From Candidatus Omnitrophota bacterium (GTDB lineage: Bacteria; Omnitrophota; Gorgyraeia; Gygaellales; Profunditerraquicolaceae), in NCBI GenBank assembly GCA_028715415.1, contig JAQURX010000011.1, positions 1,320 to 65,319 on the forward strand: a stretch of 64,000 nt of DNA, read 5' to 3'. Each line of letters opens with the position of its first letter. The stretch's first letter is position 1. This document shows, one piece after another, positions 12,743 to 31,888 of this stretch. The notes under the pieces were generated by a model, which searched no databases, had not been told where the DNA came from, and worked only from the letters and a program-made list of their open reading frames with translations. A program made the translations under genes and the position numbers.

Positions 12743-13612
12743 TCACACTTCAATACCAAATACTTTTCTTATTATTAAGCCAATCCCAAAATTAATCGCG
12801 GCTATCCCTAAGCTAATCCCTGCCATTTCAAGAAACCTCTTTTTAAAAGACAGCCCCTTAGCAACAGAGATATAGAAAGTAAATATTAGTATTATTAAAA
12901 TGGCATCGATGACAACAAAGGACAAACACAAAAATATATTTTTAAATATAAAATACGGAGCAACTAAGACAATAACCGTCCCTATATAGACAATCCCCGT
13001 ATAAACACTGGCCTTAAACGGATTTTTTTGAGTATCTTCCTGCTTTGTAGACAAATATTCCGAAGCCGACATAGACATTGCAGCCGCAATACCAGTAATG
13101 ATCCCTACAATTCCCACTAATCTGGTATTTTGTAAAGCCAGAGTAAAACCAACAAGAGCGCCGGTTAATTCCACTAACGCGTCATTTAAACCCAGCACCA
13201 TAGAGCTAACATATAAAAGGCGCTCTTCATTTATGAGGCTGATTAATTGGTTTTCGTGCCTTTCTTCATCAATAATTATCTTCTCAACTTCCGGAGAAAG
13301 TTCTTTTAAAGTAGAATAATTTTCCTGCGCCTGCCCCTCTCCGCTCTCCATCAGCTTTATCCCAAAAGTAATCCCAAATATCCGGTTAATTAATACATAA
13401 AAGAATACTTTTAGTTTATCGGGAGATACGGATTGCTGAGTAAGGCTCTTCCAGAAATTGTAATGCTCGAGCTCTTCCTGCGATATCTTCTCTAATAATT
13501 CCTTGTTCGCCTTGTCCTTAATAATACAGCTAAGCTCTTTATAAATCAGGTGCTCGGTAATCTCGCTTCTTTGAATAGACAAAATCTTATTTTTAATGCT
13601 TTGTTCCAGCAT
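12743..13612 (-). CDS. Ferritin-like/VIT1 (CCC1) family iron transporter (MbfA-like)
   Basis: N-terminal ferritin-like domain (ELEHYNFW, EERHE) plus C-terminal VIT1 membrane domain; start trimmed to MLEQS (ORF track start 13702 would overlap upstream gene). Confidence 0.6.
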   Translation of the reverse strand: MLEQSIKNKILSIQRSEITEHLIYKELSCIIKDKANKELLEKISQEELEHYNFWKSLTQQSVSPDKLKVFFYVLINRIFGITFGIKLMESGEGQAQENYSTLKELSPEVEKIIIDEERHENQLISLINEERLLYVSSMVLGLNDALVELTGALVGFTLALQNTRLVGIVGIITGIAAAMSMSASEYLSTKQEDTQKNPFKASVYTGIVYIGTVIVLVAPYFIFKNIFLCLSFVVIDAILIILIFTFYISVAKGLSFKKRFLEMAGISLGIAAINFGIGLIIRKVFGIEV

Positions 13613-17015: not shown

Positions 17016-18380
17016 TTATTCATAATTAGGCTGAGTCTTACGCCATTCTCGCTTGCTTTGAATAAGCCCGCCTCCAAGAACTTCATCTATTAATCCTAAT
17101 AGCTGAGCATCATAAGGAGTCAAGAAATGATCGCCTCGACAAAGGCATTTACAAATCAAAACTATGTAATACCAAAAAATACGGGCCTGAGAGTAAAAAG
17201 GAGCAAGTAGTTTATTTCGTTCTTCTTCATTGCCAGCAGAACGAATTTTATCCGCCGTGTCTCTGTCAAATAAAGCATGTGCATGATTAACCATCATTCT
17301 TGTAGTCGCTTGGATATGGCTAGGACTCTTTATATCTTTCATAAAAGAAAAATCTTCTATAACTGTATCCAGCCAACTATCATTAATATTCTGATTCTTA
17401 TCGATAGCAAGACGTCTCGCCAATACTTCAAGTAACAGCCTAATGTCATTACGAGAAGCCTCCTCTAGTTCGGAACCCGTAGTGGACTCAGGGACTTGTG
17501 GAGGACTAGTTTGCTCCAAATCCATCTTTTTTATTACATCAATTAAGCTGCTTATTACTTTTGTAGGATCTGTTTCTTTTTCTGATTCTGCTTTCGAAAA
17601 TCTCTGTTCAATTCTTTCAATTTGTATCCACGATGCTAATAGTTCCAAGGCTCGTATCGCGATTTTTTGATCATTAGGACTAGAAAGTCTTGAATAAAGC
17701 GCCAAAGATAGACCAACAACATCTACTATTTGCTGTTGATCTTTAGGAATTAATTCACTAAATACTTTATCGTACTGTTCTACAAACTTTTTCCAACGCT
17801 CTCTGACTTTGCTAAAAGTAGGTTTCAAATCTAAATAAACCCAAATCAATCGCTCTTGCACACGGTTAGCAAGCTTTAATGAAAATACTGCGTTACTTCT
17901 TTCCAATCGGCGCGCGGCCTCTAGCGCTTTAGAAGGAGTAACGTCATCTATGTCAGAGTAACGAACATCATGATACAAAATGTTTGAGTGTGGAAAACCA
18001 ACGGAATAATCACCAAAAGCTAGAAAACTTGCTGCGGCACTAAAAGCTCTGTTAGTAGCGACAGTATAAATCTCAACCCCCTTCCCATCCTGATCGGGGC
18101 AATTTAATAAACTAAGCAGAGATTCCATTGTGCTTACGTTACCACCAGGACTATCAATCCCAACGGTAATCGGATCGGAGCTTTTCTGTTTCATTTGGAG
18201 AATAACAGGAGTCAATTCTTTCATTAAAGTGTCATCTATAGGTTTGTTTATATAAATCGCCCGCTCCCAATTTAAAGTCAGTCCAATTTTTCGTTTTGGT
18301 TCTTTAGCTACATTTGGAGTTTGACTGCTCTTTTTTGACTGAGTTTTTGTTTTTTTATTTGTTCGAATTTTATTGCTCAT
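17016..18380 (-). CDS. ClpP/S14-like serine protease domain protein with ~300-aa alpha-helical C-terminal extension
   Basis: GIDSPGGNVSTMESLL (ClpP INSPGG-like), catalytic Ser context NRAFSAAASFLAFGD (ClpP GQAASMGAF), His context ILYHDVRY (ClpP MIHQP); basic N-terminus; 454 aa. Confidence 0.5.
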   Translation of the reverse strand: MSNKIRTNKKTKTQSKKSSQTPNVAKEPKRKIGLTLNWERAIYINKPIDDTLMKELTPVILQMKQKSSDPITVGIDSPGGNVSTMESLLSLLNCPDQDGKGVEIYTVATNRAFSAAASFLAFGDYSVGFPHSNILYHDVRYSDIDDVTPSKALEAARRLERSNAVFSLKLANRVQERLIWVYLDLKPTFSKVRERWKKFVEQYDKVFSELIPKDQQQIVDVVGLSLALYSRLSSPNDQKIAIRALELLASWIQIERIEQRFSKAESEKETDPTKVISSLIDVIKKMDLEQTSPPQVPESTTGSELEEASRNDIRLLLEVLARRLAIDKNQNINDSWLDTVIEDFSFMKDIKSPSHIQATTRMMVNHAHALFDRDTADKIRSAGNEEERNKLLAPFYSQARIFWYYIVLICKCLCRGDHFLTPYDAQLLGLIDEVLGGGLIQSKREWRKTQPNYE

Positions 18381-18415
18381 TTATCTCACCCATCTATCTC
18401 TATCTAAACGCCACA

Positions 18416-19504
18416 TCAATTATCTTTCTCCTTAAACTTCAATCTCTTGCGTAAATAGGACCATGTTTGCCAATCTTCATGCTCATGAGCCAATCTCCCA
18501 GCAACAATTCCTGGAGCAATGTTCAATTTCTGAGCAAACACAGAAATAGCCTGATTAGAAAAATCACCTACTGAACAGAATTGCGCAAACTCATGTTTAG
18601 GAATTAAGGTACCTTGGGCAAATTCATCTGCTTCTCTTTCTTTTTCATTTGATTCAACGTTCTTTTTATCTTCGAATTCTATAAATTGTTCTTTTTTTCC
18701 ATGTTTAATAAGATGCCCTAGCTCATGAAAAAAAGTAAACCAGAAAATATCCTCATAACTTCCACGAAGACTTAGCTGAATCATGGCCTTGTTTGCAGTA
18801 AGCCATCGAGTCATTCCGTTAACGCATGTGTTTCTAAAATGCGGAACAAATGCAACTGCCACCCCACATGAAGCACAAATTTCAATTATTTTCTTAGGGA
18901 AGACTGACGCATCTTGTCTCGTAAGTTTCTTCAAATCATCTAAAGCTGCATTAAGCTTGTCTTTGTCAAATTCTTGAGTTTGTGTCTCTTGGGCGTCTAA
19001 TTCCCCGCAACGTAACCAAGTAGCGATACATTCATTAGAAATTCTTCCTTTATCTGACCTTCTAAAAGCGATTTCTTGAACTTTAGGTACAAAGGCTAAA
19101 GAACTAACGCCAAAAAAATTGAGTAACCTACTCACTTTTTCCTTAGGAGTACGCGCCGGTCCAATATATTTCCATTTAACTAATTCGTTAAAACAAGTGA
19201 ATTTTACTAATAAGGGGATTTCTTGTACTAATTTCTCTTCCATCTCTATTCTAGTAAGTGTTTCCTCATAGTTTCTCTGTAAGTTATTCCAAAAATTTGC
19301 TGACATACCAAATACTGAAGATAATTTTAACGCGGTATCAGTAGTAATCGAGGCTTTACCTTGAACAATCTCATTAATATGTTTTGGGGTCAATCCAGTG
19401 CGTTGCGCTAAATCAAACTGAGTCATATTAGATGCTTCAAGAGTGTCTTGCAGTGTCTTACCAGGATGAATTGCTATGGATGGGTGATAAATGTTTTCTC
19501 TCAT
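18416..19504 (-). CDS. HTH-XRE regulator fused to ImmA/IrrE-family (COG2856) zinc metallopeptidase; HigA-like antitoxin
   Basis: N-terminal HTH (TQFDLAQRTGLTPKHINEIVQGKASIT); C-terminal HEXXH (FFHELGHLIKHG); start overlaps stop of upstream HigB-like gene. Confidence 0.65.
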   Translation of the reverse strand: MRENIYHPSIAIHPGKTLQDTLEASNMTQFDLAQRTGLTPKHINEIVQGKASITTDTALKLSSVFGMSANFWNNLQRNYEETLTRIEMEEKLVQEIPLLVKFTCFNELVKWKYIGPARTPKEKVSRLLNFFGVSSLAFVPKVQEIAFRRSDKGRISNECIATWLRCGELDAQETQTQEFDKDKLNAALDDLKKLTRQDASVFPKKIIEICASCGVAVAFVPHFRNTCVNGMTRWLTANKAMIQLSLRGSYEDIFWFTFFHELGHLIKHGKKEQFIEFEDKKNVESNEKEREADEFAQGTLIPKHEFAQFCSVGDFSNQAISVFAQKLNIAPGIVAGRLAHEHEDWQTWSYLRKRLKFKEKDN

Positions 19505-19827
19505 GAATGCCCCCTATGATAATTCCTAACTCCATCAATTTGAATAGAAGTAATTGATTTTAAATCGGAAGGATCCCCATTTAATAACTCAATTAACATT
19601 CTGTAGGGATGCTTAATATCCACAGACCATAGGCTATTCAAATTCCCGGCAAGAGAATGCAATCTGGCTTGTGGTATTTTTGAAATGTCATAAAGATTTT
19701 CTGCAGAGATAAACTCGTTAATTCTTTGAATAATTTCTTTGGATTGTTGAGCGCCATATTCCCTAGTTAATAGTTTATGATCTTCAAATATCTTTTTCAT
19801 CTTACTATTCTTGAACTGAACATCCAT
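19501..19827 (-). CDS. HigB-like (RelE/ParE superfamily, PF05015-like) toxin
   Basis: 108 aa; pattern F.D..L...YG......I..RI..L.......DI...P...LH.L.GN....WSV.I....R.LIEL...D......I.I.DY matches plasmid-maintenance killer HigB family. Confidence 0.5.
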   Translation of the reverse strand: MDVQFKNSKMKKIFEDHKLLTREYGAQQSKEIIQRINEFISAENLYDISKIPQARLHSLAGNLNSLWSVDIKHPYRMLIELLNGDPSDLKSITSIQIDGVRNYHRGHS

Positions 19828-21013: not shown

Positions 21014-22138
21014 ATGATAGTCAATAGATTAAATAAAAAGGTAATGAAAATGAATTATCAAGACAAACTTGACATTATTATCAAGACAATCAGCAAAGAA
21101 AGAGAAAAAGACTCAGACAATCCCTTTATTAGCCTTGACCTCGCCAAAAATAAAGAACTTTCCCTAATCCCTATTGACGAAATAGAAGGAATTATTGACT
21201 GCCTTCGTAAAGAAAAAGTCTTAATACTTCGCAACATAACATATCCTAAAGCTACCGATACTGAGAATGTTTCTCATTATGCCTTAACTCAACAACCTTG
21301 CTATAGTATAGAAATAGCAGAAAGTTTTTCCAACTGGCATTCTGCCTATATCCTCAAAAAATCAACTAAATTAGAAAATCTGAGCTTATTCAATCTTGAA
21401 AAAATTTGCTACCTTGTTCACGATATTGAAGAAAAATTTGAAATCAACCCAAATAAACAAATAATTATAAAATTAACCACAAATTCAATAGAACAATTTC
21501 CGCTTTTAAGAGAAAAATGCTCAATAAATTCTGATATTATCCCTTATAGAAAAGAAGCGTTGGAATATCTAAAAGACCACAGCATTATCTCTCATTACGA
21601 AATTAAACACTCTGAATATGCGGATAGCGAAATAGGCATATTACTAAACGTCAATGAGTTTAATAATTTTAAAAAAGAAATAACCAAAATATATGAAGAT
21701 AAACGTAAAAAACAAAATAAACAAATTCCTGCCCCTATGATACCTAAAACAGGCTCAGAAACACCAAAAGAATTTGCTAAAAAGCTTCAGCGTGAAATTG
21801 TCTATGAAATAAAATATACTGAAAACGGAGAAATTTTTCTTAATAATTTCCTATTTGCCAAAGTGCAGTTTAATGGAGAAAATGAGGCTGTTTTTAGTTA
21901 CCTTTTCAAACACCCGAATAAGAGAATAACAAAAGCAGAGTTCAAAGAAAAGGCTGGTTACTCTGTTGGAAAACCGCTTCATAAGATTGTTGAAAACTTA
22001 GGCTTTACAGGAAATCTCCGAAAAGCTTTCTTTAACGTATCCGAACAGGCTATACTCTTCAGAAATCCTCTCACAAAAAAAGAATTAGAAAAGCTCAATA
22101 TCCCTCAGTTAAAACTCAAGAAAAAAGCCATTTCTTAA
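21014..22138 (+). CDS. Hypothetical protein (no recognised domain), first gene of island operon
   Basis: 374-aa ORF, Lys/Glu-rich; no confident motif match. Confidence 0.35.
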   Translation: MIVNRLNKKVMKMNYQDKLDIIIKTISKEREKDSDNPFISLDLAKNKELSLIPIDEIEGIIDCLRKEKVLILRNITYPKATDTENVSHYALTQQPCYSIEIAESFSNWHSAYILKKSTKLENLSLFNLEKICYLVHDIEEKFEINPNKQIIIKLTTNSIEQFPLLREKCSINSDIIPYRKEALEYLKDHSIISHYEIKHSEYADSEIGILLNVNEFNNFKKEITKIYEDKRKKQNKQIPAPMIPKTGSETPKEFAKKLQREIVYEIKYTENGEIFLNNFLFAKVQFNGENEAVFSYLFKHPNKRITKAEFKEKAGYSVGKPLHKIVENLGFTGNLRKAFFNVSEQAILFRNPLTKKELEKLNIPQLKLKKKAIS

Positions 22139-22254
22139 TTTAAAAACTACTATTTAATATTCCGAAATTCGTTATAGTTAAAACATTCCCAACCTCTCCT
22201 AAACATACCTAAGTTACCCTAAATTAATAAGCCCTGTCGTATTCTTGATATACT

Positions 22255-22449
22255 TTGAGTGTGAATAATAAAACTGAATTAAAAACACTCATAGCTAACC
22301 ATATCAAAATTAAAACGGAAGAAGTACCTTCTGATTCCGAATTAACCGATTATGCAGATAATCTTGTATCCTTTGTTAAACTTCTAATTGAAGCGGATAA
22401 AAAAAATAATGAACGTAAAAATCTCCGAAATCCAGATATTACCAATTAA
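22255..22449 (+). CDS. Hypothetical small protein
   Basis: 64-aa ORF in operon context; overlaps start region of SpoVG-like gene. Confidence 0.2.
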   Translation: MSVNNKTELKTLIANHIKIKTEEVPSDSELTDYADNLVSFVKLLIEADKKNNERKNLRNPDITN

Positions 22450-22708
22450 GCCTTTAAACGGTTTAGTAGCTTTTGCCAGCTTCTTATTAAACGATAGCCT
22501 TTATCTTGGCTCAATCGCCATTATGACCCGCCCTCAAGGCGGTTATAGGCTTCTCTACCCTACCAAAAAAGTAGGCGCAAGAAATCTAAATATTTATCAT
22601 CCTATCAACAAGGAATTTGCAGAGTTGATTGAAAAAGAAGTAATAATGAAATTTGAAAAGGTAATGAATAAATATGATAGATACAATTGTTTTAACTCTA
22701 CCGCCTGA
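22409..22708 (+). CDS. SpoVG-like nucleic-acid-binding protein
   Basis: MNVKISEIQILPIKPLNGLVAFASFLLNDSLYLGSIAIMTRPQGGYRLLYPTKK...IYHPINKEFAELIEKEV parallels SpoVG (ITDVRI...ASITLD..FVVHDIRVI.G..GLFVAMPS...HPIN); start set at internal Met. Confidence 0.45.
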   Translation: MNVKISEIQILPIKPLNGLVAFASFLLNDSLYLGSIAIMTRPQGGYRLLYPTKKVGARNLNIYHPINKEFAELIEKEVIMKFEKVMNKYDRYNCFNSTA

Positions 22709-23825
22709 GCTTTTTGCTATTACAGAGCATAATAGATTTGACCCTTCTACAAAAGGCTTATTTGAGCGCCCTTACTATACGCTCGGCGGAAGGGGTAATT
22801 TCTCTTGTTTCCAGAATCCGACTAAGGAAGAATTTGAAAAAGGCATATACAAACCAAGACTTACCGCTACCAAACGTATGGGAAAAGGCGCATTCATAAC
22901 AACCTTAAAGATTGAATTTTCTATACCTAAGCTACTCTTCGGAAATAACTTTGACGAGGTTGAAGAACACCACTTTGACAAAATTGTTAACCTGTTACAA
23001 AAAAGACTGCAAGAAATGGGCGTATTAGTCTTTGAACACGTTTTAAAAAGTGCTCCTGTCTCAGCAGTGCATTATTCCAAAAATATAGCTCTTACAGACT
23101 ATTCAACACCTTCTGCTATTCTTAAGGAGCTATCAAAGATAAACCTAAACCAGAAACTTGATTTAAACCAAACGGACTTTAGAAATGAAGGGCATAGCTT
23201 GAAGTTTAGGGCTAACTATTTTGAAATATCTCTATACGACAAACTGAAAGACCTTAAAAAAGCCAAGACCAGCGAAAAAAGAGCCATTGAAAGAGATAAC
23301 GCCCTACAACTGACCCTATTTGACGATTTAAAGCCCAAGAAGCCTTTTGAAGTCTTGCGTATGGAAATAAGGTTAAACAATCGGGTAAAGATAAAGCAGG
23401 TCTTTAAAACGCTAAATATATCCTGTGAGATAATCTTCTCTTCTCTATTCAAAAAAGACATCTCTCAGAAAATCCTGCTCTCATACTTGAATGAAATTAA
23501 AAACGGTTATTCCCTGCTTGCCTATAAACCCAAAACTATGAAGGATTTTATAATTGATTTTAGAATGCAAAACCCCAAAGTAAAAATAAGAAAAATGCTT
23601 CAGGTCTTAGGGCTAAAAATGGCTTGCAATGATATGGGAATACGTGAATTTAGAAAATCAACAGAGTTTTACGGAGACTACAGCTGGTATAGATTAAAAA
23701 AGGATTTAACCGCTTATAAATATCCTAAGAGGCAATTATCAGTAATAAAACCAATTGAAAAGGCTTTGCTTGATTTTACTCCTCTAAGATTAGCTGACTT
23801 TGAAGAAAAGAAACAAACTACTTGA
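22674..23825 (+). CDS. Hypothetical protein, possibly replication-initiation (Rep_trans-like) protein of a mobile element
   Basis: 383 aa; N-terminus MIDTIVLTLPPELF reminiscent of rolling-circle Rep_trans proteins; assignment weak. Confidence 0.25.
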   Translation: MIDTIVLTLPPELFAITEHNRFDPSTKGLFERPYYTLGGRGNFSCFQNPTKEEFEKGIYKPRLTATKRMGKGAFITTLKIEFSIPKLLFGNNFDEVEEHHFDKIVNLLQKRLQEMGVLVFEHVLKSAPVSAVHYSKNIALTDYSTPSAILKELSKINLNQKLDLNQTDFRNEGHSLKFRANYFEISLYDKLKDLKKAKTSEKRAIERDNALQLTLFDDLKPKKPFEVLRMEIRLNNRVKIKQVFKTLNISCEIIFSSLFKKDISQKILLSYLNEIKNGYSLLAYKPKTMKDFIIDFRMQNPKVKIRKMLQVLGLKMACNDMGIREFRKSTEFYGDYSWYRLKKDLTAYKYPKRQLSVIKPIEKALLDFTPLRLADFEEKKQTT

Positions 23826-23847
23826 CTTATAAACATTATGTTATAGG

Positions 23848-24051
23848 ATGTTATATATGGAACTAATAAAGAGACTGGAAACTTACCGATTAGAAAATAG
23901 ACTCACCCAACAAGAACTTGCCAAGAAGCTCGGAGTTGCTTTTGCTACAGTTAATCGCTGGTTTAACGACAGGACAAAACCTAACCACATTCAGACTTAT
24001 CAAATTGAGAAGCTACTAAAAGAAAGGTCTAAAAATGCCAAAGGAAAATAA
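23848..24051 (+). CDS. Small HTH (XRE-family) transcriptional regulator, possible controller (C) protein of RM module
   Basis: LTQQELAKKLGVAFATVNRWFNDRTKP helix-turn-helix; 67 aa; immediately upstream of methyltransferase gene, overlapping its start. Confidence 0.55.
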   Translation: MLYMELIKRLETYRLENRLTQQELAKKLGVAFATVNRWFNDRTKPNHIQTYQIEKLLKERSKNAKGK

Positions 24052-25840
24052 AAAAGAAATCCAAGAATCAATCTTTATGCGTAATATTCAAAGAGGCATT
24101 GATAAAGGCATTATCTCCCTCTCCCCTGACCAATCAAAAATAACTTACCATTGCTCACGAGAATATACAACTGGCTTTAAGAACCCAGAAGAAAAAGTAA
24201 GGGCTTCTTACTTTGCTGAACTTATTTTAGATTATGATTACCCGCAAAAAAGAATAGATTTTGAGGTAACTGTTCCCAGAAGAACCCCAGAAGACAGGGC
24301 TGATATTGTTGTTTATGAAGACGATGAATTAAAGAAGCCTTATTTAGTAGTTGAGTGTAAGAAGGACGGTATAACCGAAGCAGAGCGTAAACAGGCGATT
24401 GAGCAAGCTTTTGGCAATGCCAATAGCCTAAGAGGACAACTTGCTTCTGTTGTAGCAGGAACAACAAAGACCGCTTTTGATGTTGCAGGATTTAAGCCAA
24501 AGGAACGAGAAAAAAATGTTATTTCGGATATACCTAAAAAATACGGCAGAACTCCGAAATATAAATTTGTAAAAGGCGAGCCTGAAAAGGAGTTAAAGAC
24601 AGTTTCCAAAGATGAACTTATCAGCGCATTGCAGAAATGCCACGATACAGTCTGGCAGGGCGGAAGGCTTGCGCCGACAACAGCCTTTGATGAAGTATCA
24701 AAACTTCTCTTCTGTAAACTAAAGGATGAAAAGGACACTCCTAAAAATGAAAATTATCAATTCCAAATAGGAACACACGAAAGTGCCGAAGAAATATCTA
24801 ACCGAATAGGTAAAATATACCAAAAAGCCAAAAAACAAGACGAAGAAGTATTTAAAGAGGATATACGGCTTGAGCCGAAAGTTATTTATAACGTAGTTGA
24901 GCATTTACAGGGCTTAGCTATAAATAAGATTGATTTAGACACCAAAGGAATCGCCTTTGAGAAGTTTATGGAAGACTTCTTTAAGGGTAAAATGGGACAA
25001 TTTTTTACTCCGAGAGAGATAATTAGATTCTGTATTAAAATGCTGAACCCAGAAAAAGATGAATCGGTCTTAGACCCTGCCTGCGGAAGCGGTGGCTTTC
25101 TGCTTAATGCAATGGATAAAATTAGGGAATTTGCCGAACAGCACTATGACGAACAAGAAGCATATAACCATTGGCACGAATTTGCCAAGAATAACCTTTA
25201 CGGTATAGAAATAAATGACCAAATTGCACGAGTTTGTAAAATGAATATGATAATCCACGATGACGGACATACTAACGTTATTAGCACTGACTCGTTACGT
25301 GATTTTGAAGAAATAAACGATATGCACCCAAAGTTTAACAAAGATAAATTTGATATTATTCTTACAAACCCCCCTTTTGGCGCAGTGGTTAAATCAACCG
25401 AAAAAGACTACTTAGATAAATATAGTCTTGGAAAGGATAAAGATAATCAGAAAACCGAAATAATGTTTATTGAGCGTTGCATTGATTTTATTAAGCCCAA
25501 GACTGGAAGGATTGCCATAGTTTTACCTGACGGAATATTGACTAACTCTTCTTTGCAATATGTAAGAGACTTTATTATGGAGCGGTGCCAGATTTTAGCG
25601 ATTGTGTCGCTTCCGCAATTTGCCTTTACCCATTACGGAGCTGGTGTTAAGTCCTCTCTTGTATTCCTACGCAGGAAAAGCGAAAAGGAAAAAGCGGAAA
25701 ATTACCCTATCTTTATGGCTATTTCCGAACATATTGGCTATGACGCAACAGGCAGAACTGACCCAATAAACGAATTAGAGACGATTTACGAAGAGTATCA
25801 GAAATTCCTAAAAAATCCGAGTGGATATAAAGGAGATTAA
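24035..25840 (+). CDS. HsdR_N-like PD-(D/E)xK nuclease domain fused to N6-adenine DNA methyltransferase (Type IIB/IIG- or type I HsdM-like RM subunit)
   Basis: N-terminal RADIVVYEDDELKKPYLVVECKKDG (HSDR_N-type D...ExK); methyltransferase motif I DPACGSGGFLL and motif IV ILTNPPFG; 601 aa. Confidence 0.7.
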   Translation: MPKENKKEIQESIFMRNIQRGIDKGIISLSPDQSKITYHCSREYTTGFKNPEEKVRASYFAELILDYDYPQKRIDFEVTVPRRTPEDRADIVVYEDDELKKPYLVVECKKDGITEAERKQAIEQAFGNANSLRGQLASVVAGTTKTAFDVAGFKPKEREKNVISDIPKKYGRTPKYKFVKGEPEKELKTVSKDELISALQKCHDTVWQGGRLAPTTAFDEVSKLLFCKLKDEKDTPKNENYQFQIGTHESAEEISNRIGKIYQKAKKQDEEVFKEDIRLEPKVIYNVVEHLQGLAINKIDLDTKGIAFEKFMEDFFKGKMGQFFTPREIIRFCIKMLNPEKDESVLDPACGSGGFLLNAMDKIREFAEQHYDEQEAYNHWHEFAKNNLYGIEINDQIARVCKMNMIIHDDGHTNVISTDSLRDFEEINDMHPKFNKDKFDIILTNPPFGAVVKSTEKDYLDKYSLGKDKDNQKTEIMFIERCIDFIKPKTGRIAIVLPDGILTNSSLQYVRDFIMERCQILAIVSLPQFAFTHYGAGVKSSLVFLRRKSEKEKAENYPIFMAISEHIGYDATGRTDPINELETIYEEYQKFLKNPSGYKGD

Positions 25841-25843
25841 ACA

Positions 25844-26728
25844 ATGGCTATATTTAACGTTACCAATGATACCTTAAAGAAATTAACCATAAAAAGGTTT
25901 AAAAACGAAAAAGAACTGCAAACTCTCTTTGAAAAGAATACTGAGACTATTTTTGGAGTTAGGCTTCTTGCTTCTGAATTTGAGACAACTCACGGTGGTA
26001 GAATTGATACGTTAGGCATAGATGAAGATAATGCGCCCGTAATCATTGAATACAAAGAAAATGAAAAAGACAATATCATTAATCAAGGTCTCTTCTATCT
26101 TGATTGGCTTATTGACCATAAAGGAGACTTTGAGATGTTGGTATATAACAAATGCGGAGAAAAGATAAAAATCAACTGGGATGAACCAAGACTAATTTTA
26201 GTAGCACAAAATTTTAACGATTACGATAAATATGCGGTAAATAGGATTGCTGAAAATATAGAGTTATGGAAATATACAATCTATGAAAATGACGTCCTAC
26301 TTGTAGAGCGCATTAACCTACCTAAAGAAGATAAACAAAAACAGAAAGTTAAATCTAAAAAGATAGTATTTGAAGAATATTCTTATGATGACCATTTGAA
26401 AGGAAAAAACAGTAATATAAAAAATCTTGTTTTAAAACTTAAGGAACAAATTCTTAGTTTAGACTCACATATACAAGAAAAGGTAAAAAAACACTATATC
26501 GCTTTTGCGCTTGAAAGGAATTTCTGCGAATTTGTTGTTCAAGTCAACTCTGTAAGAGTTCATCTTGATATTGAGAAAGATAGACTAAAAGACCCTAAAA
26601 ATATCGTAGAAGACCGCTCGCAAACAGGTCATTGGGCTACAGGGAATAGCGTAATAAAAGTAACGAACGAAAATGAAATCCCTTATCTTATGGGATTGGT
26701 AAAACAAAGTTACGAAAATAAACTGTAA
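25844..26728 (+). CDS. NucS/DUF91-like PD-(D/E)xK nuclease-domain protein embedded in RM operon
   Basis: GGRIDTLGIDEDNAPVIIEYKENEKDNIINQGLFYLDWL resembles NucS/DUF4263 catalytic core (GRIDLLa.D..g.lvvIElK); 294 aa. Confidence 0.5.
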   Translation: MAIFNVTNDTLKKLTIKRFKNEKELQTLFEKNTETIFGVRLLASEFETTHGGRIDTLGIDEDNAPVIIEYKENEKDNIINQGLFYLDWLIDHKGDFEMLVYNKCGEKIKINWDEPRLILVAQNFNDYDKYAVNRIAENIELWKYTIYENDVLLVERINLPKEDKQKQKVKSKKIVFEEYSYDDHLKGKNSNIKNLVLKLKEQILSLDSHIQEKVKKHYIAFALERNFCEFVVQVNSVRVHLDIEKDRLKDPKNIVEDRSQTGHWATGNSVIKVTNENEIPYLMGLVKQSYENKL

Positions 26729-26736
26729 GGGAAAAT

Positions 26737-28101
26737 ATGGAATGTTTTAAGATTAATTCTAATGAGGTTGAAGGACGACTTGACTGTTTCTACTATAAAC
26801 CAGAATTTGTTGAATTAGAGAAACGAATTAAGCGCTTAACTTCTAAAACACTGAGAGATTATATTGTAAATATCGCTGGCGGTGCGACACCAGATAAAGA
26901 TGAAAGCGAAAAATATTATTCAGATGAAACCAATGGTATACCATTTTTAAGAGTTCAAAACCTATCCGAAGAAGGTTTGAATTTTGACAATATTAAATTT
27001 ATAAATACCGAAACTCATAATGGTATGCTTAAAAGAAGCCAAGTTAAAGAAGGTTATCTTCTGACGAAGATTACAGGCGTTGGCAGAATGGCAGTATCTT
27101 CTGTTGCACCAAAAGGATTTGAAGGAAACATAAACCAACATATAGTCGCAATCAAAACAGAGAGCTATAAAACAAGCGAAGTATTAGCAAATTTTCTTAA
27201 TTCAGATATAGGCGAACGGTTAGCCTTCAGACGTTCAACTGGTGGCACGAGACCCGCCTTAGATTACGAAGCGTTAAAAACTATTCCTATTGTATTTGAA
27301 CCAAAAATTGTCTCAATTATGCAGTCTGCCTTTGAGCAAAAAAAACAAAAAGAACAAGAAGCGGATAAATTATTAAATTCAATGTATGGATTTGTGCTTG
27401 ATGAACTTGGTATAAAGTTACCAGAGCTGAAAGATAAGAAATGTTACTCCGTAGATTCTGGCGATATTAAAAGCCGTCTTGACCCATATTATCACAAACC
27501 ATCTTTTTTAAATAGATACAAGGCTATCAAAGCGTCTAAATATACTGTTTATGATTTCAGAGAGTTGTTGCTTGAAGTAAAAAACGGCGTTGAAATTAGG
27601 ACATACTCCGAAAAAGGTAATAGATATATGCGGGTAACGGATTTAGGAGAGACAGGAATAGTTGACCATAATCCCCGATATGTATTTGCAAAGGAAATCC
27701 CTGAAAGAATCAAGCTAACAACTAAAGATTTTCTTATATCTCGGTCTGGCTCTTTAGGCTTGGTATCTGTAGTAACAGAGAATATGCTCAATTATATTTT
27801 AAGCTCTCACATATTTAAAATAACCCTTGATTTCGCAAAGCTAAATCCTTTTTACTTACAGGCTTTTCTCAGAAGCAATATTGGACAATTTCAATTCTTC
27901 CATAATAATAACGGCGGTATTATTCCAGAAATAAACCAAGAGGCTTTAAAGTCAATAAAGATTGTAGTCCCACCTTTAGATATTCAACAGAAAATTGCTA
28001 ACGAGGTTGAAAGGCGTATGGATGAAGCAGGAAAATTGAAAAGCGAAGCCAATAACTTAATTGATAAGGCAAAAAGAGAAGTAGAAACGTTAATCTTATG
28101 A
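26737..28101 (+). CDS. hsdS: Restriction-modification specificity subunit (HsdS-like, two target-recognition domains)
   Basis: 454 aa with two repeated TRD halves (LDCFYYKPEF... and LDPYYHKPSF...) and conserved central/terminal coiled-coil spacers. Confidence 0.7.
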   Translation: MECFKINSNEVEGRLDCFYYKPEFVELEKRIKRLTSKTLRDYIVNIAGGATPDKDESEKYYSDETNGIPFLRVQNLSEEGLNFDNIKFINTETHNGMLKRSQVKEGYLLTKITGVGRMAVSSVAPKGFEGNINQHIVAIKTESYKTSEVLANFLNSDIGERLAFRRSTGGTRPALDYEALKTIPIVFEPKIVSIMQSAFEQKKQKEQEADKLLNSMYGFVLDELGIKLPELKDKKCYSVDSGDIKSRLDPYYHKPSFLNRYKAIKASKYTVYDFRELLLEVKNGVEIRTYSEKGNRYMRVTDLGETGIVDHNPRYVFAKEIPERIKLTTKDFLISRSGSLGLVSVVTENMLNYILSSHIFKITLDFAKLNPFYLQAFLRSNIGQFQFFHNNNGGIIPEINQEALKSIKIVVPPLDIQQKIANEVERRMDEAGKLKSEANNLIDKAKREVETLIL

Positions 28102-29591
28102 ATAAAGCCGTAATATTAGCAAGAGTCTCAACACTTAAACAGGAAGAAGAAGGTCTTTCTCTTGATAATCAGCTCAATACGTTAAGAAGCTATGCAAAAC
28201 AGAATGACTTTGACGTTATTAAGGAATTTAGGTTTAGCGAAAGTGCAGATTCAAAGATAAGAAAAAAATTCTGTGAAATGATTGAATTTGTCAAAAATGA
28301 CACAAATATTAAAGTTATTATTGCCTACCGAGTTGACCGTATTACCCGCAATTACAGAGACGCAGTCTTAATTGACGATTTAAGAACAAACTTTAATAAA
28401 GAAATCCATTTCGTTTATGACCGCTTAGTTATCGCCCCTAAGACTGTTGGAAGGGATATTACAGATTGGGATACAAAAGTTTATTTGGCGAAGCAATTTC
28501 TTAACCGCCTCAAGGAAGACGCTGTTGTTTCTATCAAACACAAGCTAAACAATGGCGAATATCCAAGTATGGCTCCTTATGGTTATACAAATATCGTAAA
28601 TGAAGACCGTAAGAAATGGATAGCGCCAGATTCCCTTGAATCTAAAGTTGTAATAAAAATATATGAGTGGTATGCAACAGGCGCTTTTTCTATGGATTTA
28701 ATCAGAAAAAAGCTAAAAGAGGAATTTTGTTTAGATTTTCATAAAGGCACGGTTGACTCTATCCTTAAAAATCCCTTTTATTACGGAGAAATGCTTCACT
28801 GTGGCAAGCTTTACCCACACAAATACAAAACAATCATTTCTAAGGAATTATTTGATAAAGCTCAAGAAGTTAAAGCGGGATTTAATAAAAAATCTTTTAA
28901 ATTTGTGGGTCTTCCATATCTTTACAGGGGTTTGATAAAATGCGCTAAATGCGGTTGCAGGATTACTCCTGAGAAGAAAAAAGGGAAATATGTATATTAC
29001 CACTGCACGCAATACTACGGCAAACACTCTGATAAATGGATACGGGAAGAAGATTTAACAAGGCAATTTGCCGACCTTATGAATAAAATACATCTTCCCG
29101 ATGATATTGTTGAATCTATTAGTAAAACGCTCAGAGAATCTCACGAAGACAAGGTAAATTATTATAACAACTTAAATTCAGAGCTTCAAACCGAGTATGG
29201 TAAATACGAAAAGCGAATTGAAAAGATGTATGAAGACTATCTTGACGGACGTATTACTGAAGATATGTATAACAAATTAAGACAGGATTATAGAATAAAA
29301 CAAGAAGAAATTCAGGATAAGCTAAACAGTCTTCAAAAATCCGATGAAGAGTATTACGAAACGGCTTCTTATATACTTAAAGTCGCAAATAAAGCCCCAC
29401 AGTTATTTGAAAGTTCTGAACCAGAGATAAAAAGGCAACTTTTGAAATTAACACTTCAGAACTGCGAACTAAAAGACGCAACTCTATGCCCCACAATAAG
29501 AAGACCCTTCAGCATATTCGCCGAAGGGTCTTCTCGTCAGAATTGGCTCCCCCTCGTGGACTCGAACCACGGACCTGGTGGTTACACTTGA
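28098..29591 (+). CDS. Large serine recombinase (resolvase N-domain + recombinase domain + zinc ribbon)
   Basis: N-terminal VILARVSTLKQEEEGLSLDNQ (catalytic Ser), IAYRVDRITRN; zinc ribbon CAKCGCRITPEKKKGKYVYYHC; ATG overlaps hsdS stop; last ~16 codons run into tRNA gene. Confidence 0.75.
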   Translation: MNKAVILARVSTLKQEEEGLSLDNQLNTLRSYAKQNDFDVIKEFRFSESADSKIRKKFCEMIEFVKNDTNIKVIIAYRVDRITRNYRDAVLIDDLRTNFNKEIHFVYDRLVIAPKTVGRDITDWDTKVYLAKQFLNRLKEDAVVSIKHKLNNGEYPSMAPYGYTNIVNEDRKKWIAPDSLESKVVIKIYEWYATGAFSMDLIRKKLKEEFCLDFHKGTVDSILKNPFYYGEMLHCGKLYPHKYKTIISKELFDKAQEVKAGFNKKSFKFVGLPYLYRGLIKCAKCGCRITPEKKKGKYVYYHCTQYYGKHSDKWIREEDLTRQFADLMNKIHLPDDIVESISKTLRESHEDKVNYYNNLNSELQTEYGKYEKRIEKMYEDYLDGRITEDMYNKLRQDYRIKQEEIQDKLNSLQKSDEEYYETASYILKVANKAPQLFESSEPEIKRQLLKLTLQNCELKDATLCPTIRRPFSIFAEGSSRQNWLPLVDSNHGPGGYT

Positions 29592-29839
29592 CCCGAAATT
29601 ACTTTCGGAAGCGGACTATATCTTTGCCACGGCTTGCGCCAGAGGCAGCAGGTACATAGTCTCTGAACCTTCCTCGCATTTCTGCGAGGCTCGGCTGCTG
29701 ATTACCCTTGCTTGCGCATTAGGGCTTCCAGCAATTCTCCTGCAGTTTCAACTACGGTTTCCCGTAGAAGCTGCGCTTAATCGCCCGCCTATGGCGGGAC
29801 TCGCACAGCCACTCGCTCTACCTACTGAGCTAAGGGGGA
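29544..29839 (-). tRNA. tRNA-Asn(GUU) gene interrupted by a group I intron in the anticodon loop (exons 29805-29839 and 29544-29584)
   Basis: Exons give UCCCCCU-UA-GCUC-AGUAGGUA-GAGC...CUGU|UAA...AGGUC-CGUGG-UUCGAGU-CCACG-AGGGGGA-G-CCA, closely matching E. coli tRNA-Asn architecture (anticodon loop CUGUUAA, T-loop UUCGAGU, discriminator G, CCA encoded). Confidence 0.7.
29585..29804 (-). ncRNA. Group I self-splicing intron (~220 nt) within tRNA-Asn
   Basis: Conserved elements P (AAUGCGCAAGCAAGGG), Q (AAUCAGCAGCC), R (GGUUCAGAGACUA), S (AAGAUAUAGUCC); P1 with U35.G wobble against GCGCAGC guide; P2 CUACGG-GAAA-CCGUAG; terminal omega-G before 3' exon. Confidence 0.65.
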
Positions 29840-29959
29840 ATAGATCTATAAAGAACAAAACAAATATAAACTTACTAGCCTTCCCTATCTTTCCACCTAC
29901 GGCGGGAAGGGGGAATAAGTGTTGTTTATTCTATATTAAAAGAACGGTAAAATCAAGCG

Positions 29960-31888
29960 CTAAATAATGCCAGACTCAAGGGCTTTGGTTTCAGTATCAA
30001 TCTCAATAATCTGCCTTTCTATCTCTTTCATCCGCCTGCCATACTCTTTGGCGGTTTCTTCATCGCGATAAAGCTTAGGATTTGATAAAGCGCGCGCCTT
30101 TGCATAGCTTTCCAGCTGCAAAGCTTCTTTTTTCTTTTGCAGTTTATCTATTTTCTCACGGATAGACGCATTATGCGCCTTACGCTTCTTCTCTTCTTCT
30201 TTTCGCTTCTTCTCATCTTCCTTAGCTTTTTCCTTTAAGAACTCAGCGGATGATTTATCATGCACAACTTTTACTTTCTTTACATCAATCATTACTTCTT
30301 TCTGATCTTTTTTCTCAAAATAATAATCAAAATTCCCGGGAAACTTTCTTACTCTTCCCTCTTTAACCTCAAAAACAACATTTGCTACGGAACGCACAAA
30401 ATAAATATCATGACTGATAAATACGAGCGTCCCTTCATAATTCTGCAAAGCCCTTACCAATGCCTCAACAGCATCCACATCAAGATGCGTTGTCGGCTCA
30501 TCAAGCAAAAGTAAATTCGGCGGGTCAATTAGGAGCTTTGCCAAAATAAGGCGGCTCTTCTCTCCACCTGATAAAACTTTTACTTTCTTATCAGCATCAT
30601 CTCCGGTAAATAAAAAAGCTCCGAGAATTGTGCGGATAGTTTCCTCTGACATAAAGCCCGGAGCTGCAGTATAAGCCTCCCGTAAAACAGTATTCTCCGG
30701 ATTTAGCACATCCATACGTGTCTGAGAAAAATACCCTGCCTCTACATTATGCCCTACAGTTCTAACTCCAGAATCAATATCAATCACACCGGCTAAAATC
30801 TTTAAAAGAGTTGATTTCCCGGCGCCATTTTCTCCGGCTAAAACTGCTTTCTCGCCTTGGAAAATTTCAAAATTAAAATCCTTATAAACCTGAATTTCCC
30901 CGTATGACTTTGAAATATTTTCTAAAGTCATAACACGATGCCCGCTTCTTTTTGCCTGCGGGAAATGAAAGCTATTAATACTCTCACGCGTATCAGGAGG
31001 CAAAACAATTTCTTCTTCCTCCATTCTCTCAAGGACTCTTCGTTTTGCGCGCACTGACGCAGCCTTATTCGGCTGGGCGTGAAAACGCTCTACAAACCTC
31101 TCTAGCTGCTTACGCTTTTTTTCCTGTTCTTTAAATTGTTTCTCAAGATGAGTTTTCCTCTCGGATTTAATCCGTTCGTATTGTTCATAATTTCCGTGGA
31201 CCTTGGCAACTGAGCCGTTTTCAAGAATAAATGTATAATTAGTTACGTCCGTTAAGAAAGCCCGGTCGTGCGAAATCATAATAAATGTTCCTTCAAAACC
31301 CGCAAGATAATCCTTAAGCCATAAAGCAGCATTTAAATCCAGATAATTTGTAGGCTCATCAAGAAGTAAAAGGTCATAGTGATAAGTTAAAAGTTTCCCC
31401 AAGAGAGCGCGCATCTGCCAGCCTCCGCTCATCTGAGAAATCTGACGGTTGAAGTCTTTTTCTTTAAAACCTAAACCCGCAAGGATTTTTTCCGCTTTAT
31501 GCTCAAGCTCAAAAAAGCCAAGATTTTCTAATTTATGCATAACCTCGCCATAATGCTTTGAGCCGGCATCATTATTCTCTTCAAGCCTTTCTTTTTCTTT
31601 TTTTAGCTCCAGAATCCTTTCGTCGCCTTCAGTTAGCTCAGCTAAAACCGTACGGTCTGATTTAAAACTGGATTCCTGTGCAAGGTGCCCAATATGAATA
31701 TTTTTATTAACCCTTACCTCTCCGGAAGAAGGCTCCATCTCCCCCAACAGCAAAGAAAAAAGCGTACTTTTTCCTGCTCCATTTGGCCCAATAAGGCCAA
31801 TCTTCTCTCCGGCATTAATGGTCAGAGAAATATTCTCAAATAATGTTTTCTTACCGTAATTTTTTGAAAGATTTGATATAGTAATCAT
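29960..31888 (-). CDS. ABC-F family ATPase (two ABC cassettes, C-terminal coiled-coil extension)
   Basis: Two Walker A (GPNGAGKST, GENGAGKST), two LSGG signatures, no TM; 642 aa with Lys/Glu-rich C-terminus. Confidence 0.8.
   Translation of the reverse strand: MITISNLSKNYGKKTLFENISLTINAGEKIGLIGPNGAGKSTLFSLLLGEMEPSSGEVRVNKNIHIGHLAQESSFKSDRTVLAELTEGDERILELKKEKERLEENNDAGSKHYGEVMHKLENLGFFELEHKAEKILAGLGFKEKDFNRQISQMSGGWQMRALLGKLLTYHYDLLLLDEPTNYLDLNAALWLKDYLAGFEGTFIMISHDRAFLTDVTNYTFILENGSVAKVHGNYEQYERIKSERKTHLEKQFKEQEKKRKQLERFVERFHAQPNKAASVRAKRRVLERMEEEEIVLPPDTRESINSFHFPQAKRSGHRVMTLENISKSYGEIQVYKDFNFEIFQGEKAVLAGENGAGKSTLLKILAGVIDIDSGVRTVGHNVEAGYFSQTRMDVLNPENTVLREAYTAAPGFMSEETIRTILGAFLFTGDDADKKVKVLSGGEKSRLILAKLLIDPPNLLLLDEPTTHLDVDAVEALVRALQNYEGTLVFISHDIYFVRSVANVVFEVKEGRVRKFPGNFDYYFEKKDQKEVMIDVKKVKVVHDKSSAEFLKEKAKEDEKKRKEEEKKRKAHNASIREKIDKLQKKKEALQLESYAKARALSNPKLYRDEETAKEYGRRMKEIERQIIEIDTETKALESGII

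Follow-up and report, generated by a model that had tools for sequence, protein, structure and literature searches.

A Type IIB-like restriction-modification pair with an embedded PDC-S18 gene on a small integrating element of an Omnitrophota bacterium

Gene layout and the carrier element

We analysed a 64-kb window (the whole stretch of Candidatus Omnitrophota DNA under study), in which five genes at 23848–29591 of the forward strand encode an HTH protein, an RM fusion, a PD-(D/E)xK protein, a two-TRD HsdS and a large serine recombinase, each gene abutting or overlapping the next. The HTH gene (23848–24051, +; Xre-type, 67 aa; Pfam HTH_3, E 1.1e-9) overlaps the RM gene (24035–25840, +; 601 aa) by 17 nt. 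The middle gene (25844–26728, +; 294 aa) starts 3 nt past the RM stop, with an AAGGAG box within the RM 3' end, and hsdS (26737–28101, +; 454 aa) starts 8 nt past the middle-gene stop. The recombinase gene (28098–29591, +; 497 aa; Pfam Resolvase, Recombinase and Zn_ribbon_recom) begins within the hsdS stop through an ATGA overlap. The first-pass annotation of this DNA had described the same parts at these positions, namely three tightly coupled genes with a small HTH gene upstream and a serine recombinase over the hsdS stop, and this layout was reproduced throughout.

Homologues of the HTH protein occupy the same position in five related loci (L081, L095, L098, L178 and L179). The PADLOC Control_protein profile did not match the product of 23848–24051. 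We regard this protein as a candidate C-protein-like controller for the RM cargo; with its gene overlapping the RM start, it would probably set the timing of expression.

The module rides on an integrative element of ∼8.8 kb, in which a conserved backbone is followed by a cargo slot and the large serine recombinase. The backbone (21014–23825, +; 82–87% nucleotide identity to the sister Omnitrophota element L081 from 21041 on) encodes a 374-aa protein, a small ORF, a SpoVG-like protein (22388–22708) and a 383-aa protein (22674–23825). Except for SpoVG, these proteins gave no matches in Pfam, PHROG or PDB. The same backbone order was found in L178, L179 and L180 with other cargo: a Type III-like Mod and Res pair, a Dam-like MTase with an unknown protein, or an unknown gene. 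The RM module is swappable cargo in an element family that has a fixed backbone and a variable RM slot.

The recombinase, the element's integrase (PHROG integrase, E 2e-64), is 88% identical to that of L081. The final ∼16 codons of its gene lie antisense to the 3' exon of tRNA-Thr(UGU) (29544–29839, −), a gene with a 220-nt group I intron (Rfam RF00028, 68.8 bits; ARAGORN, introns allowed). The overlap of the recombinase 3' end with a tRNA gene was seen in 11/11 related loci, and L081 adjoins the same tRNA, whose intron is longer there. This tRNA gene is the probable integration target at the right end of the element, which would have integrated at the tRNA 3' end with the RM module as exchangeable cargo.

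The RM fusion and its specificity subunit

The RM protein has a PD-(D/E)xK restriction domain at its N-terminus; a helical connector links this domain to a gamma-class N6-adenine methyltransferase, which is followed by a C-terminal helix. Pfam HSDR_N_2 matched aa 51–167 (24185–24535, +) with 56.4 bits against a cut-off of 25, N6_Mtase matched aa 302–560 (24938–25714, +) with E 2.1e-47, including motif I (DPACGSGGFLL) and motif IV (NPPF), and the same scan found no HsdM_N. PADLOC assigned the protein to MTase_I (PDLC03030, E 8e-141). The AF2 model (pLDDT 52) was too poor for a fold test; at this low confidence a lone C-terminal helix is predicted (H581–593). In the source annotations, members of the RM family are named 'N-6 DNA methylase' or 'type I restriction enzyme M protein'.

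The best PDB relative was RM.BsaXI (8w0p; E 6e-38 with the single sequence, 2.5e-52 with a profile). The alignment runs in three collinear segments, comprising the connector and MTase plus a collinear N-terminal segment, and the Type I HsdM chains align from ∼aa 275 only. By sequence the N-terminal domain matches BsaXI weakly (5 bits). Residues E77, D90, E107 and K109 align with BsaXI E73, D90, E105 and K107, all four of which are essential by mutagenesis (PMC11997821), and they are invariant both in close homologues (75–94% identical) and in distant fusions (28–30% identical). Invariant residues of the MTase domain are D347/P348/G351/G353 and N445/P446/P447/F448. The HSDR_N_2 match and the invariant catalytic residues agree with the earlier description of a methyltransferase carrying an intact N-terminal nuclease domain, rather than an ordinary HsdM_N domain.

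HsdS, annotated beforehand as a two-TRD protein, does contain two TRDs and two conserved regions (Pfam Methylase_S), with an NCBIfam match and PADLOC Specificity_I matches in two stretches. It is 38% identical to the S protein of L081; the two proteins share their central and C-terminal conserved regions and differ in their TRDs.

The first-pass annotation had also stated that an SF2 helicase gene is lacking. There are eight ORFs of at least 590 aa in the window. Six were identified by Pfam as CstA, a histidine kinase, CheA, an MCP, glycogen phosphorylase and an AMP-binding/NRPS-like protein; the seventh is RM itself, and the eighth (29960–31888, 642 aa) is 78% identical to an L178 gene annotated ABC_tran. 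None looks HsdR-like, and no hsdR lies within the 64 kb, just outside the operon included. A tblastn search found no second copy of RM, S or the middle gene in the window. We also compared 80 metagenomic loci of close relatives of RM, 76 of which are informative for the RM–S junction. No HsdR-type family is among the neighbour families listed for these loci. S is nearly always downstream of RM, directly after it in most of the 76, and ∼70% are plain RM–S.

We consider it likely that RM and S form a self-contained, helicase-less, two-subunit R-M system of BcgI/BsaXI (Type IIB) design, carried as exchangeable cargo, with the middle gene as a separable passenger. The BcgI-like resemblance proposed earlier is sustained by BsaXI as best solved relative, the aligned tetrad, an S adjoining RM and the absence of HsdR. 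BcgI-like enzymes are 2RM:1S assemblies, trimmed-down kin of Type I enzymes (PMC3874165). We infer a similar stoichiometry here, with two RM subunits binding one S subunit that would recognise a bipartite site. The MTase domains would methylate host DNA using SAM, and the N-terminal domains would cleave unmodified DNA at fixed positions without an ATP-driven translocase. Two-sided cleavage by this RM subfamily would be an extrapolation from BsaXI and BcgI.

The middle gene, its distribution and its possible role

The middle protein matched the PADLOC family PDC-S18 over its full length (E 2e-97) and Pfam DUF5655 with 52.6 bits. NucS_C scored 21.3 bits, under its cut-off of 24, the NucS equivalog 22 bits against a cut-off of 216, and no DUF4263 profile match was obtained. 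From an AF2 model of pLDDT 83, Foldseek related the N-terminal domain to EndoMS/NucS and SduA and the C-terminal domain to YjbR. In the protein a Lys-rich linker connects an N-terminal NucS/Shedu-like PD-(D/E)xK nuclease to a YjbR-like domain at the C-terminus. The nuclease motif (D55, E69-x-K71, Q81..Y85) is invariant, the length and domain order are common to thousands of homologues, and homologues 57–70% identical occur across Bacteria and Archaea. Of the 'NucS/DUF4263-like' core described before, the NucS likeness stands by fold, and the DUF4263 part is a likeness of fold only. PDC families are defined by genes embedded in RM, BREX or DISARM loci ('guilt by embedding'; 10.1101/2024.01.29.577857). 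We found no defence test of any DUF5655/PDC-S18 member in the literature searched. The gene is uncharacterised, yet already catalogued as a defence candidate.

In L081, whose RM is 94% identical, the RM stop and S start abut and there is no middle gene. DNA homology between the two elements is interrupted from ∼25806 to 27973, save for a central-S stretch (27307–27494, 72% identical), so that the segment replaced comprises the middle gene and most of S. A middle gene is present at the RM–S junction in 8 of the 76 informative loci, and unrelated ORFs occupy it in 12 others. In the RM tree, loci with the middle gene occupy at least four separate positions, and in one six-locus clade all members carry it. 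Divergence of RM correlates with that of the middle gene (Spearman 0.44, p 0.003), and the RM–middle–S order recurs in Omnitrophota, one Pacearchaeota archaeon and several metagenomes. Taken together, the recurrent order, the clade and the correlation make some functional benefit of the linkage possible.

The majority of the DUF5655 family, on the other hand, is located outside RM operons. An N6-MTase-like gene lies anywhere within the flanks in 15/80 DUF5655 loci, and is the gene directly downstream in 9/71 genome loci (13%). In classical Type I systems on Acinetobacter and Cupriavidus plasmids a member separates hsdS from hsdR, on a Staphylococcus plasmid a member stands alone, and in Anaerolineales one adjoins an aminotransferase gene, a position that is stable and apparently vertical in 9 Chloroflexota loci. 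Further neighbours are BrxL, Fic, PLD and RadC. The PDC-S18 match, the separability and this spread identify the 'extra nuclease' as a known kind of embedded passenger. The hybrid or uncharacterised three-gene restriction arrangement suggested in the first pass is not upheld, and the middle gene is no evidence for a new restriction architecture. Most likely the passenger, in which a NucS/Shedu-like nuclease is fused with a YjbR-like domain that putatively binds DNA, would act as an independent add-on nuclease with a putative defence role, co-transcribed and co-transferred with RM and carried along in recombinational swaps of the S/TRD segment.

It is unlikely, in our assessment, that the nuclease is coupled to RM–S as a PrrC-like guard or back-up, being held inactive by RM–S or sensing its state, and the corresponding scenario, in which a phage anti-restriction protein disables RM and so frees the nuclease as a second defence line, appears equally so. 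The tight same-orientation embedding with 3-nt and 8-nt gaps, its recurrence in both Type IIB-like and Type I operons, the clade that keeps the gene stably with correlated divergences, and the precedent of PrrC/EcoprrI for embedded back-up systems (10.1101/2024.01.29.577857, discussion) are consistent with such coupling; most of the family, however, has no RM neighbour, as the Anaerolineales and Staphylococcus members illustrate.

About as unlikely is a non-defence role, either as a selfish homing-type nuclease entering mobile operons or as a NucS-like repair or housekeeping nuclease in a 'genomic sink'. The patchy presence among near-identical elements, the 57–70% identity across domains, which points to recent transfer, the stable Chloroflexota site and the repair nucleases NucS/EndoMS as nearest folds would fit this role. 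Against it, an N6-MTase as next gene in 13% of loci would be far more often than expected for a gene so rare in genomes, BrxL, Fic, PLD and RadC are among the other neighbours, and the protein is without the NucS N-terminal domain and far under the equivalog cut-off.

We find it very improbable that the middle protein docks on an M2S core as the true, or an additional, restriction subunit, replacing HsdR and taking its sequence specificity from that core. Its position between M and S with translational coupling to both, its intact and invariant PD-(D/E)xK and QxxxY residues and the lack of HsdR in the window would suit this role, but RM already has a complete conserved Type IIB tetrad, the gene is absent from ∼70% of related loci, L081 included, and family members are found within full Type I systems that possess HsdR. 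Moreover, the middle protein is 59–85% identical while partner S proteins range from 29 to 42%, and so it cannot hold the matching sequence specificity itself. Least credible of all is an orphan M+S with a vestigial nuclease domain, serving epigenetic marking or element protection: the family's annotation names and the MTase_I assignment agree with it, but the four catalytic residues are invariant down to 28% identity, toxic R-M cargo typically has an HTH gene upstream, as here, and the architecture is that of the active BcgI/BsaXI enzymes (PMC11997821, PMC3874165).

Comparison with known systems

With BcgI and BsaXI the module shares an RM subunit made of an N-terminal PD-(D/E)xK domain, helical connector and gamma-class N6A MTase, the E/D/E/K tetrad, a separate two-TRD S encoded alongside, and no translocase. 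The BcgI RM subunit is ∼640 aa long, near the size found here, whereas BsaXI (916 aa) has an extra C-terminal 'knob' and 'paddle' region that is absent. Further differences are an S of full Type I size, the weak sequence similarity of the N-terminal domain (cleavage here being putative), the third gene between RM and S, and a serine-integrase element as carrier. With classical Type I systems it shares an HsdS-type S, an MTase domain with homology to HsdM (solved HsdM chains match at E 1e-20 to 1e-25) and probably an M2S-like assembly, but it has no HsdR or SF2 motor, and its M subunit begins with a nuclease domain of the HsdR type in place of HsdM_N.

MADS (mad1-8) of Pseudomonas aeruginosa provides the best NCBIfam matches, MAD2 for RM (the alignment, aa 49–574, takes in the N-terminal domain) and MAD5 for S. 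These are far under the cut-offs (330 vs 720 bits and 138 vs 400 bits), and the other mad genes, the kinase among them, are absent here; MADS requires mad2-4 and mad6-8 (10.1101/2023.03.30.534895).

The middle gene is like PDC-S18/DUF5655 in its strong full-length HMM match and same-orientation embedding in an RM operon. Its host operon, however, encodes a Type IIB-like RM+S with no helicase and is not a classical Type I, BREX or DISARM locus, and its slot is the M/S junction, as against the S/R junction on the Acinetobacter and Cupriavidus plasmids. NucS/EndoMS and Shedu (SduA) share the RecB-like PD-(D/E)xK fold of its N-terminal domain, with D, ExK and QxxxY; it differs from NucS in having no N-terminal mismatch-binding domain, from Shedu in having no DUF4263 profile match, and from both in its YjbR-like C-terminal domain. 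The parts are known ones, a Type IIB RM+S design and a PDC-S18/DUF5655 passenger, here joined on a small integrating element.

Gene organization and relationship of RM and S to Type IIB enzymes

Five genes on the + strand form a tight block, as the first-pass annotation had proposed and as the ORF listing and Pfam searches confirmed. An HTH gene (23848-24051) overlaps by 17 nt the gene encoding a 601-aa nuclease::methyltransferase fusion (RM; 24035-25840). The gene of a 294-aa middle protein (25844-26728) starts 3 nt past the RM stop, that of the 454-aa HsdS (S; 26737-28101) follows after an 8-nt gap, and that of a 497-aa large serine recombinase (28098-29591) overlaps the hsdS stop in an ATGA. 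The source is a Candidatus Omnitrophica MAG contig. In Pfam searches the fusion matched HSDR_N_2 (aa 51-167, 56.4 bits) and N6_Mtase (aa 302-560, E 2e-47, 162 bits), HsdS matched Methylase_S, and the recombinase matched Resolvase, Recombinase and Zn_ribbon. We also scanned for promoters and terminators. Promoter-like sites were no commoner than chance, and the sole signal was a lack of terminator-like sites (zero in 9 kb versus 6 ± 2.6 expected).

Among solved structures the fusion is closest to RM.BsaXI, which belongs to Type IIB (E 6e-38 with the single sequence, E 2.5e-52 with the family profile), and aligns to it in three collinear segments. The RM.BsaXI alignment begins at aa 163, in the helical connector; Type I HsdM chains align from ∼aa 275. 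The N-terminal segment is also collinear with RM.BsaXI, though weak, and within it E77, D90, E107 and K109 of the fusion line up with BsaXI E73, D90, E105 and K107. The cryo-EM study of BsaXI reports all four to be essential, with absolute conservation throughout Type IIB (PMC11997821). We observed no variation at E77, D90, E107 and K109 among 20 close homologues or in fusions at 28-30% identity (alignments A7 and A8). An AF2 model of RM had a pLDDT of 52, from a shallow alignment of sequences 75-94% identical, and was left out of the fold search.

BcgI-like enzymes are 2RM:1S assemblies, described as 'trimmed-down' relatives of Type I systems without the translocase (PMC3874165). The present locus has a PD-(D/E)xK endonuclease and a gamma-class N6-adenine methyltransferase in one polypeptide, conserved catalytic E...D...ExK residues in the REase domain, and a separate two-TRD S subunit encoded in the operon of RM. 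No ATP-dependent translocase subunit and no helicase-type ORF were present in the 64-kb window, and none of the window ORFs of at least 590 aa, six of which were scanned with Pfam, was HsdR-like. One of these ORFs, of 642 aa, has 78% identity to a gene annotated ABC_tran in L178, a locus that shares the backbone of the element described below. In all but a few of 76 related loci (from 80 metagenomic loci), RM is followed by S. For large neighbours in the 80 loci (24 ORFs of at least 550 aa), the 25 of 54 families listed included none of HsdR type, and six annotated contexts of related loci were also devoid of HsdR. From the BsaXI match, the catalytic residues, the position of S after RM and the absence of an HsdR-type family among those listed, we read RM and S as a self-contained Type IIB-like enzyme, for which we infer a 2RM:1S stoichiometry and SAM- and Mg2+-dependent cuts on either side of a bipartite site. 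The earlier suggestion of a BcgI-like, Type IIB system is therefore supported.

Close homologues of RM (71-87% identity) are very numerous; they usually carry the annotation 'type I M protein' and come from Omnitrophota, Elusimicrobia, Leptospiraceae, Patescibacteria, Pacearchaeota and Nanoarchaeia. A helicase-less, BcgI-like RM+S family is abundant, is labelled 'Type I M protein' almost everywhere, and has 73-87% identity between members in Omnitrophota, CPR bacteria, Leptospiraceae and DPANN archaea. The viral collection contained a single RM relative, indicating that the module is not typically phage-borne.

The middle gene and its relationship to the RM-S pair

The middle protein matched the PADLOC family PDC-S18 (PDLC04946) over its full length (aa 2-292, E 2.1e-97) and Pfam DUF5655 at 52.6 bits (cut-off 24). 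PDC families are candidates drawn from genes embedded in Type I RM, BREX and DISARM loci, most of them untested (10.1101/2024.01.29.577857). The names 'PDC-S18' and 'DUF5655' were absent from the text and supplements searched of this guilt-by-embedding preprint, so the PDC-S18 link rests on the name of the PADLOC-DB model. No functional report on PDC-S18/DUF5655 was found in the papers searched, and the family is an anti-phage candidate only. It has >6,900 matches of nearly fixed length, with 57-70% identity between Bacteria and Archaea, and E45, D55, E69, K71, Q81 and Y85 are invariant in it. In an AF2 model of the middle protein (pLDDT 83), a disordered Lys-rich linker joins an N-terminal nuclease domain to an alpha/beta domain at the C-terminus. 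Foldseek related the N-terminal domain to NucS/EndoMS, Shedu SduA and other PD-(D/E)xK nucleases, and the C-terminal domain to YjbR-like proteins.

The comparative evidence says that the middle gene is not part of the RM+S enzyme. A near-identical element in a sister Omnitrophota locus, L081 (82-87% nucleotide identity; RM 94% and recombinase 88% identical), does not have the middle gene, and its S starts directly after the RM stop. DNA homology between the two breaks from 25806 to 27973, save for a short central stretch of S (27307-27494), and the two S proteins have only the conserved regions in common; a single exchanged segment takes in the middle gene along with most of S. The boundaries of the insertion could not be defined relative to L081, because the adjoining TRD of S has itself been replaced. 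Among the 76 informative metagenomic loci, the middle gene lies at the RM-S junction in 8, a distant homologue is located just past S or upstream of RM in 4 more, and unrelated ORFs occupy the junction in 12, the remainder being plain RM-S. On the RM tree, carriers of the middle gene fall in at least four places, and in one clade of six loci all have it.

DUF5655 genes also occur away from this enzyme. An N6-MTase-like gene was nearby in 15 of 80 genome loci with a DUF5655 gene, and the gene just downstream was an N6-MTase in 9 of 71. The neighbours were otherwise diverse (an aminotransferase in Chloroflexota, RadC, Fic, PLD and BrxL). The gene stands alone on a Staphylococcus plasmid, and complete Type I systems on Acinetobacter baumannii and Cupriavidus plasmids carry it between hsdS and hsdR. 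The claim of a hybrid restriction arrangement was therefore not borne out, given the L081 element, the 8/76 junctions and the occurrence of the gene alone or within Type I systems.

The order RM-middle-S nevertheless recurs across domains (L001, L086/87, L088, L096, L126, L159, L160, L165 and L169), so the linkage of the passenger to RM may bring a selective benefit through co-transfer, co-expression or a PrrC-like back-up role. A stronger version, which we consider improbable, would have the DUF5655/PDC-S18 nuclease wired to RM, either as a latent second nuclease freed on inhibition of RM-S or by recruitment to stalled or uncut sites. The recurring RM-nuclease-S cassette, moved across Bacteria and Archaea by tRNA-targeting serine-integrase elements, would then be a two-layer defence unit and not a chance insertion. 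As the middle protein is 59-85% identical while the partner S varies at 29 to 42% identity, it cannot be a cognate sequence-specific endonuclease.

We also observed that, in the 80 loci of close RM relatives (L094-L173), the stretch from the RM stop to the S start is a hot spot where accessory genes insert: about a quarter of the loci have an insertion, and the unrelated small ORFs there are 74-419 aa long. In a pooled scan of junction inserts and large neighbouring ORFs, DUF559 and Schlafen AlbA_2 were among the Pfam families matched. The window and L081 elements constitute a natural experiment, being two near-identical mobile elements, one with and one without the embedded nuclease gene. This opens the PDC-S18/DUF5655 family to direct testing, on its own as well as in combination with the host RM system.

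The carrier element and its flanks

The RM, middle and S genes occupy the cargo slot in a small integrative element associated with a tRNA gene, as seen from a shared backbone with variable cargo and from the overlap of the recombinase gene with a tRNA gene. The backbone comprises, in order, a 355-379-aa protein, a small ORF, a SpoVG-like protein, a 381-385-aa protein and often an HTH protein. The upstream 383-aa protein is one of about 1,500 members of an uncharacterised family, and neither it nor the 374-aa backbone protein had matches in PHROGs, Pfam or the PDB. The element spans 21014-29591 in the window and 5013-12652 in L081. Three further contexts have the same backbone, other cargo and then a large serine recombinase: L178 (7370-16432) carries an N6_N4 MTase and a ResIII/DEAD/RE_endonuc protein (Type III-like), L179 (7329-13563) a Dam-like MTase and an unknown protein, and L180 (7372-13140) an unknown 405-aa protein.

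In all 11 loci with sequence (window, L081, L095, L103, L120, L128, L133, L134, L178, L179 and L180), the recombinase ORF enters a convergent tRNA gene (Thr, Asn, Gln or Asp) by 0-60 nt. This suggests a serine integrase family that targets tRNA 3' ends and whose ORF is terminated inside the tRNA. At the left end we found no convincing att-like direct repeats or displaced tRNA fragment; such an outcome is expected for a serine recombinase. The flanks of the element differ between the window and L081 genomes. Such a small element family, with its recombinase gene ending inside a tRNA gene, is a plausible vehicle for the inter-domain spread of restriction systems. The value of the locus is that the candidate nuclease can readily be tested in it, and that it exemplifies RM cargo that is mobile and swappable.

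Several features of the flanks were recorded. The tRNA-Thr(UGU) of the window (29544-29839, - strand) has a 220-nt group I intron in its anticodon loop (Rfam 68.8 bits). The same tRNA-Thr in L081 (12607-13247) has a 566-nt intron with a 108-aa ORF inside, and a tRNA-Asn with a 200-nt intron (13126-13400) adjoins the related element of L180. To our knowledge, bacterial group I introns in tRNA-Thr and tRNA-Asn are outside the classical cases (Leu, fMet, Arg and Ile). The 5' end of the window tRNA-Thr is imperfectly repeated, over 26 nt and in direct orientation, 75 nt upstream of the tRNA (29892-29917 versus 29817-29842, 81% identical), perhaps as a trace of some earlier rearrangement. A three-gene cluster immediately to the left of the window element (17016-19827, - strand) encodes a 108-aa HigB-like toxin, a 362-aa HTH and M78 peptidase protein (PADLOC PD-Lambda-2_B, E 4.6e-41) and a 454-aa ClpP-like-domain protein, and is a possible toxin-antitoxin or defence module. 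The L180 element has at its left edge a fragment (6895-7203) similar to the C-terminal quarter of the serine recombinase (41% identity to aa 386-488), which may be a scar left by a tandem element that once occupied this site. In L081, an nhaA-I riboswitch-like RNA (Rfam RF03057, 52 bits) is located just past the tRNA (13408-13462).

Comparison with known systems

We considered membership of MADS, as MAD2 and MAD5 were the top NCBIfam matches. This system is defined by MAD2 and MAD5 orthologues over the family cut-offs in an eight-gene mad operon (gene content from 10.1101/2023.03.30.534895). The scores here were 330 versus a cut-off of 720 bits and 138 versus 400 bits (NCBIfam MAD2 and MAD5), other mad genes were absent, and PADLOC yielded only weak mad1, mad2 and mad5 matches, so MADS was rejected on scores and gene content.

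Shedu (DUF4263) membership of the middle protein was rejected, as there was no Pfam or PADLOC Shedu match at E ≤ 0.01; its likeness to SduA is one of fold only. NucS/EndoMS proteins have an N-terminal domain and a C-terminal nuclease domain and score over the equivalog cut-off, whereas the middle protein scored 22 versus 216 bits with NCBIfam NucS and 21.3 versus 24 with Pfam NucS_C; the likeness is limited to the nuclease fold.

Classical Type I R-M systems require an HsdR with a DNA-translocating SF2 motor, which is absent from both the window and the element. Their HsdM has a helical HsdM_N N-terminus; the fusion has no HsdM_N match and begins instead with HSDR_N_2. The locus is a BcgI-type RM+S pair with an embedded PDC-S18 candidate, both of kinds already known.
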